Assembly (NCBI GenBank): GCA_038150265.1
Contig: JAYOTF010000026.1
Location: 1 to 46,207, forward strand
Length of the DNA stretch: 46,207 bases
Source: Deltaproteobacteria bacterium
Lineage (GTDB): Bacteria > SAR324 > NAC60-12
Direction: 5' to 3'
The notes beneath the pieces were generated by a model. That model was not told the origin of the DNA. It did not search any database and saw only the letters and a list, made by a program, of their open reading frames with translations. Of this stretch, positions 23,760 to 45,926 are shown piece by piece (positions within the stretch are counted from its first letter, which is position 1; each line of letters opens with the position of its first letter). A program made the position numbers and the translations under genes.

Positions 23760-24242
23760 TCAGCGTCCCATCAGCATGTCAATCTGTTCCTTGGGCACCA
23801 GCCGGGTCTTGTGAAACACCACGCCTTGCTTGTCGATCAGGACATTGATCGGCGGGCGCAGGGGGGTGTAGTGGTAGTCGAGGCTGGCAATGTCATCTTC
23901 ATCCAGGAGGACATCAAAGGGCAGCTCAAACTTGTCCCGAACCGCCCGGACCTTCTCCACCTCGTCCTGAGAGGTGATGTTGATGGCAACGATCTTCAGC
24001 CCCTGCTCGCTGTACTGCTGGTGCATCTGCTTGAGTACGGGCAACTCCCGTAGACAGATGCTTCACCAGCTGGCCCAGAACATCAGCAGCGTGGGCTGCT
24101 TGCCAATGAAGGCTTCAGTTTCCACGAAGTTTCCGTCCAGGTGCTTGAGGGTGAAGTGCGGTGCCTCTTCGCCTGGAGACACTTCTGCAACCGCCACGGT
24201 CGCAAGCATCAGCAGGGCCAGGGCCATCCCAAGGGCTTTCAT
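23760..24242 (-). CDS. TlpA/ResA-like (AhpC/TSA-redoxin fold) thiol-disulfide oxidoreductase, predicted selenoprotein, 160 aa, Sec at codon 60
   Basis: ATG at 24242 with an AGGAG Shine-Dalgarno: MKALGMALALLMLATVAVAEVSPGEEAPHFTLKHLDGNFVETEAFIGKQPTLLMFWASW-TGA(24065-24063)-SICLRELPVLKQM... This continues in frame into the track ORF 23760..24044. The TGA sits exactly at the first Cys of the WASWCxxC motif. Confidence 0.88.
24023..24061 (-). promoter_or_regulatory. Bacterial SECIS element
   Basis: Right after the UGA: GCAUCUG-uc-UACGGG-AGUUG-CCCGUA-cucaag-CAGAUGC. It has 7-bp and 6-bp stems and a 5-nt apical loop with G at position 2, starting 16 nt after the UGA. Confidence 0.82.
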
Positions 24243-24297
24243 GCCGTTCTCTCCTGTGCAAACGTTAAGGGTTCAGGGACAAAAAACGAAGGCGGCG

Positions 24298-25059
24298 TCA
24301 GCCTTCCAGCTCCTCATAGAGGCTCTGGAACTCACGACTCACCTTGTGTCCAGGGTCCATCAGCACCAGCGGCTGAGCCTCTCCATGGGACTCCCGGATC
24401 TTGACGGAGGAGGAAAGATAGGTCTTGAGGACCGGAAGCTGGTCCGTGAGCAATTCCTCGACAATCTGGGCCGGAAACTTGGCCCGTGGTTGGAACTGAT
24501 TGACGATGATGCCTTCCACCGCGAGGTCTCGGTTGTGGTCGACCCGGATCTCGTTCACGTTTTCCAGCAGCGCGTAGAGGGCGTTTTTGGAAAAGCTGTC
24601 GCAGTCAAACGGAATCAGGCACCGCGAGCAGGCAATGAGCGCCGAGCGGGTGTAAAACCCCAGAGCGGGTGGGGTGTCGATGTAAATGCGGTCGTAGCTC
24701 AGGTCGTCCAGCGCCTCTCGGAGCTTGAACATCTTGTACCGCGATTCCAGCTTGCCCTGAAGCTCTTCCATTTCCGGATGGGCCGGCATCAGCTCCAGGT
24801 TCGCAAACGGCGTAAAGTGCGTAAACTCACCCGGCTCCGGACTCCGGAAGGAGAAGCTGAGCATGCTGTCAAAGAAGTGATAGACCGTCTGCTGGTCTGG
24901 AATGCCCACCGAGCCCATCAGGTACTGGGTGGTGTTGCCTTGAGGGTCCAGGTCGATCACCAGCGTCCGCAGGCCCTTGGCCGCACTGAGTGCCGCCAGG
25001 TTGCAGGTGATGGTGGACTTGCCCACTCCGCCTTTTTTGTTGAAGACGACCCGCCGCAT
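24298..25059 (-). CDS. ParA/Soj-family ATPase (no adjacent parB)
   Basis: Deviant Walker [23 protein letters not shown]. Confidence 0.93.
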
Positions 25060-25150: not shown

Positions 25151-26710
25151 TCAGGGGCGTTGCGGCCTCGGTGGGCTGCCCGAGGCCGACTTCCGAGGCT
25201 TGCGCGGCGCCACCCGGCGCTCCTTCAGTTTCAGGTATTCGGGGTCGCGGGTGAGGTTCCGGGACAGGTACACGTGCTCATTCGGATTCCCGAAGCCTTC
25301 ATTGACAAAGAACCGCAGTGCAGGCTTGTTGTCAGCTTCCGTGTCAATGAGCAGCATCCGGGCGCCTTCGGCAATGAAACGCTCCGTGATCTTGTCCAGC
25401 AGGCGCTTGCCCACCCCCTTGCCCTGCCACTGGGGGCTCACCCCCAGCCAGTCGAGCCACCCATACACCCAGGCGCTCCGGCGTTTTTCCATCAGGGAGC
25501 CCAGGGCAAACCCGACGACTTCGCCGTTTCCGGCGTCCGCCACCCAGCAGAACTCTCCATCGGTGTTGAACATGTTGATGATGTCAGTTTCGTCCCAGGT
25601 CCGGTAGAGGTTCGGCCAGTCTTCAGCGGTGTAGAGTTGCTCTCCCAGCGCATAGACCTTGTGCAGGTCATCCAGTTCCATTTCCCGGATTTCCAGCGCC
25701 CCGGTGGTCCTGGCCCCTCTTGGCGCGGCCACCGGTTCCGGAGCGGGCTCCGTTGAGGCGTTTCGCTGGAGCAGGACATTGAGCTCGCGTGCAATCCAGT
25801 TCGAGGCCTCCCGGGCCTGTGGCAGCACGCCTCGCGAGTTGACAAACCCATGCAGCATGCCCTCCCAGTTGCGCTCAATCACGGGCACCTGGGCTTCCCG
25901 GAGCCGCTTGGCATAAGCGAGCCCCTCGTCTCGGAGCACGTCACAGCCGGCCAGCAGCATCAGGGTGGGGGGAAGGTCCTTGACCTGTTCGGCAAAGAGC
26001 ACCGAGGCTTCCGGATGCCGGCGGTCCAACTCCGGAGGAAGGTAGTGGTCAATGAACCAGCCCATTGCGGCTCGGGTCAGCCCAAAATTTTCGGCAAATT
26101 GCTCATACGAGGGAAAGCCCCGGGTGAGGTCTGTGACCGGATAGATGAGCACCTGCGCCGCAAGTTCCGGACCGTGCTGGTCGCGGGCGCGCAACGCCAC
26201 AGCCGCGGCCAGGTTCCCACCGGCGCTGTCACCACCAACGGCGAGCTGACGCGGATCTCCACCCAGATCGCGGGCGTGCCGGGCCACCCACTGCGTGGCC
26301 GCCCAGCAGTCTTCCAGGGGCCCGGGGAAGCGGCACTCGGGCGCCAACCGATAATCCACCGAAACCACCAGCCACCGTCCTTCGTGGCACAGTGCCCGGC
26401 AGAAGCCGTCGACCGAATCCAGGTTGCCCACCACCCAGCCGCCGCCATGGAAGAAGACCAGGATCGGCCAGCCTCGGCCAGCCTCTCCTTCTGGAGCATA
26501 AAGCCGCACAGGCAACTCCCCCTGCGGTCCGGGAAGGGTTCGGTGCTCCACCGAGCCCACTGGGGCGGGGGTTCCGGTCTGCCACGCCGGAGTCTGCAGG
26601 TGCTGCACGCGGGCCTGCTCGGGCGAAAGGGTGGTGAGGTCCGCCAGCCCAGCCTCCTGACGGAGGTGCAGCAGCATTTGGGCTTCCGGGGCAAGGAACG
26701 ATGACGGCAT
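25151..26710 (-). CDS. Fusion of an HSL-family (family IV) esterase and a GNAT acetyltransferase
   Basis: N-terminal part has HGGGW, VDYRLAPE, GDSAGGNL, DVLRDE and HGF. After a Pro/Ala linker (from about aa 339) come LEIREMELDDL and the acetyl-CoA motif A VSPQWQGKGVGKRLL, then NKPALRFF..EGF. Confidence 0.9.
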   Translation of the reverse strand: MPSSFLAPEAQMLLHLRQEAGLADLTTLSPEQARVQHLQTPAWQTGTPAPVGSVEHRTLPGPQGELPVRLYAPEGEAGRGWPILVFFHGGGWVVGNLDSVDGFCRALCHEGRWLVVSVDYRLAPECRFPGPLEDCWAATQWVARHARDLGGDPRQLAVGGDSAGGNLAAAVALRARDQHGPELAAQVLIYPVTDLTRGFPSYEQFAENFGLTRAAMGWFIDHYLPPELDRRHPEASVLFAEQVKDLPPTLMLLAGCDVLRDEGLAYAKRLREAQVPVIERNWEGMLHGFVNSRGVLPQAREASNWIARELNVLLQRNASTEPAPEPVAAPRGARTTGALEIREMELDDLHKVYALGEQLYTAEDWPNLYRTWDETDIINMFNTDGEFCWVADAGNGEVVGFALGSLMEKRRSAWVYGWLDWLGVSPQWQGKGVGKRLLDKITERFIAEGARMLLIDTEADNKPALRFFVNEGFGNPNEHVYLSRNLTRDPEYLKLKERRVAPRKPRKSASGSPPRPQRP

Positions 26711-44026: not shown

Positions 44027-45346
44027 TTACTCGATCGTGCCCGTCTCCAGACGTTGCTTGTGGATCTTCTCGAGCTTGTACAGGTCCTGCTGAAGCTCAA
44101 AGAAGCCGTGCCAGTGGGCGTAGTCCGGAGCGCCCATCATGGCGCCATGCCGGGCACGGCGGCCTTCGTGGTGCCAGAGGTGGTAATAAGTGATCTGAAA
44201 CTCATCATTCCACGGGTTGTCGAGCAGCAGGCCCTTTTCGTCCAGCTCGTTCAGCATGGCGGTGGCCGGCTTGTAGTAGCCCTCGTTGTAGAGCTTGACC
44301 GCCTTGTCGCCCTGCGCAAAGAAGTTGTCGGTGTGCCGCTTCATGTGACACGACTGGCAGACCTGCTTCATCTTGGCCCGGCCTTCCGGACCATTCCCCA
44401 GCAGGGGACTGAGGACGTCATTGGAGTTCCGGACCTTGGACTCCTTCGCCCAGAGGTTCCAGTAGAGCCGTTCGGTGACATTGTGGGTCGTCTTGAGTTC
44501 GCCAATGCCACTCATGTGACACGTGGTGCACGTCGGTCCTCGGTAGTCTCCGGGTTCCCAGGCATCCGGAGCCGAGTCCCACTTCCAGTTGTTCCCATCA
44601 GCAGCAAAGACGTGCCCGTGCTTGCTGTTTTCAAAGACCTCAATGTCCGGATGGTCGGGTCCCAGGTGACACGAGGCACAGGCCGCGGGCTTGCGGGCTT
44701 CCTCCAGGCTGAAGGCGTGGCGGGTGTGACAGGTGGAGCAGTTGCCCGTGCTGCCATCAGGGTAGATGTTGCCCATCCCGGCATTGGGCCACGTGGAGGC
44801 CAGTGGGCGTCCGGAGTCGTCAAGCTCGATCTTGGTGCCGTGGCACTGAATGCAGCCCGTTTCATTGGGCGCATTGCTCAGCTCCGGATGGTTGCGTCCT
44901 TCATGACGCTGCACCAGGGCATGGAGGCTGTCCTTGGGAATGATCTGTCGGTAGGCCCGGATGTGGCCACTTGCCTCAAACTGCTCCGTTTCCTGGGCAT
45001 GGCAGCGGGCGCAGGTGGAGGGCGGAACCAGCGCCGAGACGAAGACGTTGGTGCCGATGAGGGTCTCATGCTGAGTCGCCATCGGGGAGCTTTTCGGAAC
45101 CGAGTGGCAGTCGATGCACGACACTCCGACGTGGGCGTGCCGGCTGTTCTTCCAGTCGTTGATGATGCCGGGGTTGTGCTGCTGGTGGCAGGAAACACAT
45201 TCCTTTCCCACTTCCGTCAATCCTCGGTCAATGACAATGGAGCGCACATGGCTGAGGTCTCCGACGGACTCGGTTTGGGGTTCATTGGCCCAGAGCAGGG
45301 GTGCCCCCAGCAAGCAGCAACCGATGAGAAGCAAACGCGTGAGCAT
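44027..45346 (-). CDS. Octaheme cytochrome c, hydroxylamine oxidoreductase family (epsilon-Hao-like, reductive type)
   Basis: Start taken at MLTRLLLIG (signal peptide). Eight CxxCH motifs: CVSCH, CIDCH, CARCH, CIQCH, CSTCH, CASCH, CTTCH, CQSCH. Also CHLGPDHP, SKHG, HHEGRRAR and MGAPDYAHWHG. Confidence 0.92.
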   Translation of the reverse strand: MLTRLLLIGCCLLGAPLLWANEPQTESVGDLSHVRSIVIDRGLTEVGKECVSCHQQHNPGIINDWKNSRHAHVGVSCIDCHSVPKSSPMATQHETLIGTNVFVSALVPPSTCARCHAQETEQFEASGHIRAYRQIIPKDSLHALVQRHEGRNHPELSNAPNETGCIQCHGTKIELDDSGRPLASTWPNAGMGNIYPDGSTGNCSTCHTRHAFSLEEARKPAACASCHLGPDHPDIEVFENSKHGHVFAADGNNWKWDSAPDAWEPGDYRGPTCTTCHMSGIGELKTTHNVTERLYWNLWAKESKVRNSNDVLSPLLGNGPEGRAKMKQVCQSCHMKRHTDNFFAQGDKAVKLYNEGYYKPATAMLNELDEKGLLLDNPWNDEFQITYYHLWHHEGRRARHGAMMGAPDYAHWHGFFELQQDLYKLEKIHKQRLETGTIE

Positions 45347-45362
45347 GAGGTCCTTCTGACAG

Positions 45363-45926
45363 TTAAAATTGAGCGAATTCCCTGGGCGCCAACTGCTCAG
45401 ACAGCTCGTGGTGGCCGACATGCGGGTGACAGGAAACGCAGGTTTGGCGGGTCGTTTTTTGGAAGTACGGGCGATGGGCAACAAACGCCTTGTTGCTGGC
45501 CATCGTTGCGCGCTCCAGGTTTTGGTGACAGTTGAGGCATCCGGAGTCGTAGGTGAACTCTTCACGGCGCTCACGCTTGGCTTCCCAGTCAATGGCCTCA
45601 AGGTCATACGTCCACTGGGCCCAGACATCGTGGGTGCCCGTCTGCGCCTTGGCCCAGGCATAGCCCCAGGCGCTCTCATGGGGCAGGTGGCAATCCAGGC
45701 AGGTCGCCTGAATTCCGTTGGCATTGACGCCCCCATGGGGATCCTGCTCGTAGGCCGCAATCATTGGAGCCATGACGTGACACGTTCCACAAAACCCGGC
45801 GCCATCGGTGGCATGAAAGACCTCTTCGGTGGCCACCCATCCCATCAGGGCCCAGGCGACCAGCGCACCTCCGGCGCCACAGGCGATCAGCCAGCGCATC
45901 AAGTTGAAGTTCCGAGTCGAGTTCAT
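45363..45926 (-). CDS. NapC/NirT (NrfH-like) membrane-anchored tetraheme cytochrome c
   Basis: N-terminal TM helix and four CxxCH motifs (CGTCHVM, CLDCHLPH, CLNCH, CVSCH..VGH). Confidence 0.94.
   Translation of the reverse strand: MNSTRNFNLMRWLIACGAGGALVAWALMGWVATEEVFHATDGAGFCGTCHVMAPMIAAYEQDPHGGVNANGIQATCLDCHLPHESAWGYAWAKAQTGTHDVWAQWTYDLEAIDWEAKRERREEFTYDSGCLNCHQNLERATMASNKAFVAHRPYFQKTTRQTCVSCHPHVGHHELSEQLAPREFAQF

Follow-up and report, generated by a model that had tools for sequence, protein, structure and literature searches.

The window, by which we mean the whole stretch of 46,207 nucleotides analysed here (contig JAYOTF010000026.1 of a SAR324 bacterium), carries on the minus strand, at 23760..24242, a candidate selenoprotein gene. 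Its frame starts with the ATG at 24242, has a putative ribosome-binding site (AGGAG, 24251..24255, recognised from the sequence) 8 nt upstream, and contains only one in-frame TGA (codon 60, 24063..24065) before the terminal TGA at 23762-23760. When this TGA is read as selenocysteine (Sec), the product is a 160-aa protein with a TlpA/ResA-like thioredoxin fold. Around codon 60 the frame reads LLMFWASW-TGA-SICLRELP, where Sec substitutes for the leading Cys of the WxxWCxxC motif, so that W-A-S-W-U-S-I-C corresponds to residues 56-63 (U60-S-I-C63) and Cys63 is the sole Cys. The preliminary description had proposed a single frame from this ATG, running from a signal peptide through W-TGA-SIC, and our translation confirms it. 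It had also stated that the ORF list contains nothing of the gene but a 94-aa C-terminal half, which is true (23760..24044, minus strand, TTG start), and that pipelines would call the gene a pseudogene. This fragment stands in for the whole gene, and the protein-database entries for the gene and its relatives are fragments only, of 76-99 aa, one of them labelled ‘TlpA disulfide reductase family protein’.

Residues 1-19 (24186..24242, minus strand) are predicted to form a cleavable signal peptide, with a basic start, a hydrophobic core and A-V-A before E20, and cleavage would presumably occur after residue 19. Inspection of the sequence showed no lipobox Cys in this peptide. A short hydrophobic stretch starts each of the nine orthologues described below, with N-terminal hydropathy peaks between 2.35 and 3.53 in 9/9. 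Upstream of the gene, at the end of a parA-like gene (24298-25059), a consensus scan alone detected a terminator-like hairpin with a T-run (24288..24306, minus strand); the scan returned 4 sites, compared with 1.7 +/- 1.2 in shuffles. This hairpin suggests that the candidate selenoprotein gene may not be simply co-transcribed with the parA-like gene. An identical run of 14 letters, ribosome-binding site included, is found at 24258-24245 and at 23626-23613 (minus strand), in front of the ATG of the selenoprotein gene and that of the ABC peptide-binding gene downstream of it, respectively. The closest relative (G002) has another stretch 5′ of its selenoprotein gene.

Regarding the selenocysteine insertion element (SECIS), the preliminary description had drawn a two-stem hairpin behind the UGA. 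The sequence does fold as drawn, with a free energy of -19.5 kcal/mol (z -2.85; 0/200 shuffles were equally stable), but only the inner part is conserved. This inner element (24036..24052, minus strand) has a 6-bp stem and a 5-nt loop, AGUUG, which begins 16 nt after the UGA; the element overlaps the codons of L64-R65-E66-L67-P68-V69 and has an energy of -7.6 kcal/mol on its own. Its six pairs are formed in 54/54 cells of an alignment of nine orthologues, with compensatory changes at the two outer pairs. The outer 8-bp stem (24023..24061, minus strand, pairing 24061-24054 with 24030-24023) forms in the window sequence and is poorly conserved: its GCAUCUG/CAGAUGC helix is paired in 54% of cells in the nine orthologues, and the third pair outward occurs about as often as chance predicts in a wider set of pattern matches presented below (82/126 vs 73.8 expected). 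We rejected it as a part of the SECIS, and it is probably accessory. Only the inner stem-loop of 6 bp is predicted to function as the SECIS. The accessible part of PMC13188914 gives as bacterial consensus a loop of 3-9 nt, a stem of 4-16 bp, a minimum free energy of -7.5 or lower, a G in the first two loop positions and a distance of 16-37 nt from the UGA. The window element agrees with all these constraints (5-nt loop, 6 bp, G at loop position 2, 16 nt, -7.6 kcal/mol), with both its spacing and its inner-stem energy at the edge of the range allowed in that text.

We then asked how the TGA behaves among relatives. In 61 related genomes, the ten best places (query included) each had one TGA and the next places had none; a search of 88 genomes of the phylum gave the same ten places, in nine genomes. 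The TGA is thus kept at all nine other orthologous places (eight genomes), and it falls on the same codon in 9/9 aligned orthologues with protein identities of 36-89%, although these counts are of related sequences and overstate the number of independent events. Two of the places belong to one genome, G023 (L334 = C135, L335 = C49), where they lie in near-identical 7-kb stretches with groEL and other neighbours; they are probably one locus assembled twice. By contrast, the same column holds a Cys codon (TGC/TGT) in 21/21 of the more distant homologues examined, in agreement with the proposal that the UGA replaces the attacking Cys. Neither the 88 genomes of the phylum nor a set of 49 database proteins (E <= 1e-20) yielded a Cys orthologue inside the clade; of these proteins, the closer ones are fragments only and the full-length ones are 28-39% identical. 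With the orthologue profile, two records named as SAR324 reach 235 and 221 bits.

In a quick tree of 132 rows (244 pattern matches thinned to 79, with Cys rows then added), the window gene falls inside an 11-row clade made up of Sec rows only (SH-aLRT 99), which is separate from the ccmG clade as well as from the other Sec groups, with an unresolved backbone. The Sec rows require seven changes on this tree, and one or several origins of the SECIS core are both possible. According to these results, the locus adds a well-supported, unannotated clade of predicted selenoproteins to SAR324, of which the databases keep fragments that lack the active site.

The fragmentary database entries, and the fact that the Sec reading is predicted from sequence, are what one would expect if the TGA were a true stop in a pseudogene or an assembly error. 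However, the TGA is kept down to 36% identity, and Nei-Gojobori dN/dS values on either side of it lie between 0.03 and 0.18 in four pairs; judged by these ratios, purifying selection is acting on both halves of the gene. Codons 61-70, over which the hairpin lies, showed 0-2 synonymous changes in about 8 sites, compared with roughly half of the sites elsewhere. R65, E66 and P68 are each written with a single codon in 9/9 genes, while the other 18 degenerate invariant positions (the Sec codon excepted) use two or more, from two to four. In addition, no other letter appears at 24063-24065 in the contigs (not raw reads) of four runs from four studies, one of which may be the source of the window. 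Given the conserved TGA, the selection on both halves and the matching contigs, together with the covarying hairpin and the Sec machinery encoded in the genome, a pseudogene or an error is very unlikely, to the point of being negligible. A 201-nt contig from an RNA library (X16, depth 3.25, five differing letters, from a relative) also spans the TGA; we set it aside as evidence of expression, since DNA carry-over is possible (word share 0.10).

The preliminary description implied that selA, selB, selC and selD would be present in the genome, and all of them were found. Genome searches gave 513 bits for selA, 387 for selB, 362 for selD and 65.5 for tRNA-Sec, each above its own cut-off, and ARAGORN reported a tRNA-Sec with anticodon TCA. 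The selD gene has an in-frame TGA of its own. By its predicted gene content, the window's genome can insert Sec. All nine genomes that carry the Sec gene have selA; selA is present in 57/61 relatives although only 9/88 genomes of the phylum have the Sec gene, which is therefore dispensable. Taken together, the frame, the hairpin, the conservation and this machinery indicate that the TGA at codon 60 is almost certainly decoded as Sec, and the core of the preliminary description, a UxxC selenoprotein with a SECIS, an export signal and a host equipped with Sec machinery, holds at the level of sequence.

A genome-wide screen for TGA codons, a crude filter that yields mostly false positives, returned 188 candidates out of 118,762 TGA triplets and ranked the window gene second, behind a stop between adjacent genes. 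selD is missing from the best 90 of the 188, so the screen is incomplete. Five further genes have an in-frame TGA followed by a downstream hairpin (G000:C3:66956 (-), C30:29470 (-), C29:1691 (-), C45:8590 (+) and C4:116309 (-)). We take these to be PrdB-like (U-G-L-C), thioredoxin-like (U-S-L-C), a peroxiredoxin (T-P-G-U), MoeB-like and SelD, respectively, names which, SelD excepted, are assigned from motifs. The hairpins of the SelD and PrdB-like genes have G-containing loops 17 nt 3′ of the UGA and resemble that of the window gene.

To place the protein among known families, we compared it with profiles and structures. Three Pfam models scored above cut-off: AhpC-TSA (PF00578, 76.7 bits), Redoxin (PF08534, 64.5) and Thioredoxin_8 (PF13905, 46.6). 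No NCBIfam model reached its cut-off, the best being ResA with 81.8 of 170 bits, and TIGR00385 remained at 50.6 of 123. A predicted model, folded with Cys in place of Sec, had a pLDDT of 88 and matched ResA and related extracytoplasmic thioredoxins; the closest solved folds are ResA and CcmG/DsbE, with a TM-score of about 0.72-0.74 to Bacillus subtilis ResA. With the Cys-containing TlpA/ResA/CcmG (DsbE) proteins, the window's protein has in common the fold, the WxxWCxxC-x-x-E-x-P helix and export, at 27-29% identity, but the attacking residue is Cys in those proteins and would be Sec here. Besides, ResA and CcmG have a membrane anchor and sit in a ccm/res operon, whereas the window's protein has a predicted cleavable signal and no such operon. 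The ResA-like WAxxUGC family of UGC-containing TlpA proteins (NF041054) likewise combines the TlpA fold with Sec after WAxW, and its model matches 9/9 orthologues. Nevertheless, its motif is U-G-C instead of U-S-I-C, the match reaches 44.4 bits against a cut-off of 300, and the model covers 354 positions while our protein has 160 aa.

One could argue that the protein is a periplasmic peroxidase, with Sec attacking peroxide directly, since AhpC-TSA is its best Pfam match and Bcp peroxiredoxins are among its fold matches. Sec peroxiredoxins, however, have the motif PxxxTxxU in place of the WxxW-U-x-x-C found here, ResA outscores Bcp in both profile and fold searches, and another gene of the genome (C29:1691) is a candidate for a Sec peroxiredoxin, all of which makes this reading highly improbable. 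We conclude that the window's protein is not CcmG, not a member of the WAxxUGC family and not a peroxiredoxin.

Predicted selenoproteins of this kind have been catalogued before. Table 1 of PMC13188914 and Table 1 of PMC9312934 include UxxC ‘thiol-disulfide isomerase-like’ selenoproteins (cd02966), as well as ‘Redoxin family’ (PF08534) and ‘Prx-like thiol:disulfide oxidoreductase’ (PF00578) selenoproteins, and the first of these classes dates, in the accessible text, from the 2005 Sargasso Sea survey (PMC1088965). As far as these tables describe them, the TlpA/Redoxin UxxC selenoproteins belong to the same fold families as the window's protein, have Sec first in UxxC and a downstream bSECIS, and their function is predicted only. 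These classes are broad labels, in which we placed the protein by Pfam and motif; on every feature testable, it is a predicted member of the broad TlpA/Redoxin UxxC class. For the Global Ocean Sampling (GOS) data, the portion of PMC2398784 available to us reports 321 predicted selenoprotein sequences of ‘Trx-like 1’ (COG0526, UxxC). Its Dataset S1 holds 70 occurrences of CRRELP; those examined in context are proteins of the form WADY-U-x-x-CRRELP that have N-terminal export signals, a likeness by text motif only. They have Tyr before Sec where the window's protein has Trp, and a text search of that dataset for WUSIC and IGKQP gave no match (PMC2398784).

In the openly accessible literature searched, we found no description of a SAR324 clade with a cleavable signal or of the shared 13-nt core; subscription papers and supplements may contain them. 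Searches combining SAR324 with selenoproteins found no mention of SAR324 except in a table that does not concern this gene, and the main text of the deep-Sep paper contains no TlpA, Redoxin or UxxC. A TlpA selenoprotein is described from an alga in the portion of the literature available to us, and exported Sec thioredoxins are, in the passages of reviews at hand, largely uncharacterised in function. Since the class has been predicted since 2005, the protein should be no surprise to specialists.

The preliminary description had suggested that the protein might serve cytochrome c maturation, for example of the octaheme protein of the window, and hence act as a reductant of apocytochromes c of the CcmG/ResA type. 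This would agree with ResA and CcmG/DsbE being the closest solved folds, and the invariant E66 aligns with Glu80 of ResA, a residue that we presume to have a functional role there. A Sec TlpA gene from Chloroflexi (L105) adjoins a cytochrome c assembly gene, the only such case in 51 upstream frames scanned. Nonetheless, ccmF in this genome has its stop overlapped by a distinct Cys ccmG with a membrane anchor (C2:65902-68453), and a ccmG of this type is also present in 8/8 other genomes that bear an orthologue, so the heme-attachment job is already filled. In the quick tree this ccmG belongs to a different clade, the window's protein has a predicted cleavable signal and not an anchor, and none of the nine related loci examined has a ccm gene nearby. 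We consequently discarded the CcmG role as the main reading, on account of the Cys ccmG in an operon with ccmF, its separate clade and its presence in 8/8 other genomes, and consider it quite unlikely. The genome also has a second Cys TlpA behind ccmG, with ccmC and ccmE elsewhere. The octaheme gene is 20 kb from the selenoprotein gene and has no conserved link with it. It belongs to a stretch at 44027-45926 (minus strand) encoding a NapC/NirT-type cytochrome followed by the multiheme cytochrome with its eight CXXCH motifs, which is of the hydroxylamine/hydrazine oxidoreductase-like group and scores far under the hydrazine dehydrogenase cut-off.

Gene neighbourhoods differ among eight related genomes and indicate no partner except in one genus (g7). 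In the window's genome, parA is upstream of the selenoprotein gene and a gene for an ABC peptide-binding protein is downstream; parA is upstream in the window's genus, and unrelated genes take its place in four other genera. Further upstream, at 25151-26710 (minus strand), a gene combines an alpha/beta-hydrolase (esterase) with a GNAT acetyltransferase domain; this fusion is also found upstream of parA in G001 and G002. In both g7 genomes, the orthologue closes a run of same-strand genes, a cluster encoding a PhsA/PsrA-like molybdoenzyme, the NrfD membrane subunit and several rhodaneses (L331:967-8400 and L333:4000-11191), with a 4Fe-4S subunit seen in G017 and a YeeE-type sulphur transporter in G008. 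A gene of about 223 aa just 5′ of the g7 orthologue had no Pfam or NCBIfam match. The g7 arrangement would fit a selenoprotein specialised for periplasmic sulfane sulfur, stripping persulfide or polysulfide from rhodaneses or from a thiosulfate/polysulfide reductase system. Yet this context is limited to 2/9 genomes of a single genus, the window's own genome has parA and the ABC peptide-binding gene as neighbours instead, and none of the best literature matches listed pairs TlpA with persulfide, rhodanese or polysulfide reductase. We thus regard such a specialisation as conceivable, though unlikely.

The reading that we favour, with moderate confidence, is that of a functional selenoprotein acting as a soluble periplasmic dithiol reductase of the TlpA/ResA type, recharged by DsbD and with a broad range of envelope-thiol substrates. 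It draws on the heme-attachment job being filled, on the unconserved neighbourhood, and on what the accessible part of PMC4460558 says of related proteins: that CcmG-type proteins are reduced by DsbD/CcdA, and that TlpA of B. japonicum and of N. gonorrhoeae is multifunctional. In the first step of this model, which is strongly supported, SelB with Sec-tRNA would bind the 6-bp/AGUUG hairpin that lies 16 nt downstream of the UGA, and Sec would be inserted at codon 60. The precursor would then be exported and cleaved after residue 19, so that, as predicted from the sequence, 141 aa would remain, a thioredoxin-fold domain lacking a membrane anchor. In UxxC and CxxC thioredoxin folds, the first residue attacks and the second resolves. 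Hence, the selenolate of Sec60 would attack the oxidised sulfur of a periplasmic target and Cys63 would resolve the intermediate, giving a selenenylsulfide. DsbD, presumably encoded elsewhere in the genome, could afterwards re-reduce the protein with cytoplasmic electrons; a DsbD homologue at C3 scores 146.5 bits, below its cut-off of 330.

The likeliest job would be the upkeep of envelope thiols, such as wrong disulfides, oxidised or persulfidated Cys, or the metal-site Cys of Sco/CoxB-type proteins, and Sco and CoxB motifs were found in the genome. The selenoprotein would then be an accessory enzyme and not a dedicated CcmG. Export, the link to DsbD and the substrate are all inferred, the last by exclusion. 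Envelope redox repair, the other role mentioned in the preliminary description, is a better guess than cytochrome c maturation. Being small and single-domain, with a SECIS of the consensus type, the protein offers a convenient test case for the role of exported Sec thioredoxins.

Finally, we looked for the same SECIS core in other phyla. When W-U-x-x-C-x and the 13-nt core were fixed in a search pattern and two stem pairs left free, at least 124 stretches of a genome collection matched (at least 126 distinct matches), mostly from Acidimicrobiia and Dehalococcoidia among the matches listed. In the 126 matches listed, the free stem pairs were paired in 125 and 124, compared with 102.8 and 90.0 expected from column composition, and the next pair outward in 82 (73.8 expected); the counts are of related sequences, not of independent events. 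As a control, we searched metagenomes with a pattern that allowed TGA, TGC or TGT at the site and obtained 118 distinct matches, 107 with TGA and 11 with Cys. Both free pairs were paired in 100/107 TGA matches and in 1/10 Cys matches with a thioredoxin fold. The core is therefore a sharp marker (107/118 metagenome matches with TGA), usable for rescuing many mis-called genes. The lone paired Cys match (L254:359-389) is a member of the Acidimicrobiia-type group with a complete SECIS stem, which suggests a recent change from Sec to Cys.

When we searched for Acidimicrobiia-type active sites with a pattern that left out the SECIS, most matches were ordinary Cys thioredoxins. Of the 15 TGA sites among the matches listed, a set chosen independently of the core, ten had the exact core, twelve the full 6-bp stem and three no full stem. 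Four of the five tested genomes bearing such sites have selA. A broader proposal would be that exported W-U-x-x-C-x-R-E-[L/F]-P reductases from several phyla (SAR324, Acidimicrobiia, Dehalococcoidia, Rokubacteria/NC10 and others) share this near-invariant core, embedded in the active-site helix, and that the SAR324 branch is dedicated to periplasmic sulfane sulfur (persulfide/polysulfide), as the g7 cluster would hint. On the sequence data presented here we consider it speculative and rather unlikely; if true, exported Sec thioredoxins would have a first known function, and selenium supply would be tied to SAR324 sulfur cycling.

With regard to the surroundings of these genes, the 51 upstream frames scanned for the 79 matches picked comprised 26 of the anthranilate phosphoribosyltransferase type, five of Fur and one of cytochrome c assembly. 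The Fur-family regulator is upstream of Acidimicrobiia-type Sec TlpA genes at L074, L092, L095, L133 and L140, and a CbiM-type cobalt/nickel uptake gene is found 3′ of several genes of this type (L079 downstream). In some cases (L082, L099/L100, L102/L103, L114/L115, L119 and L143/L144), two Sec TlpA genes stand in tandem at a distance of about 1.1-1.3 kb; each copy has this SECIS core, and its export signal is followed by a long linker rich in Thr and Pro.
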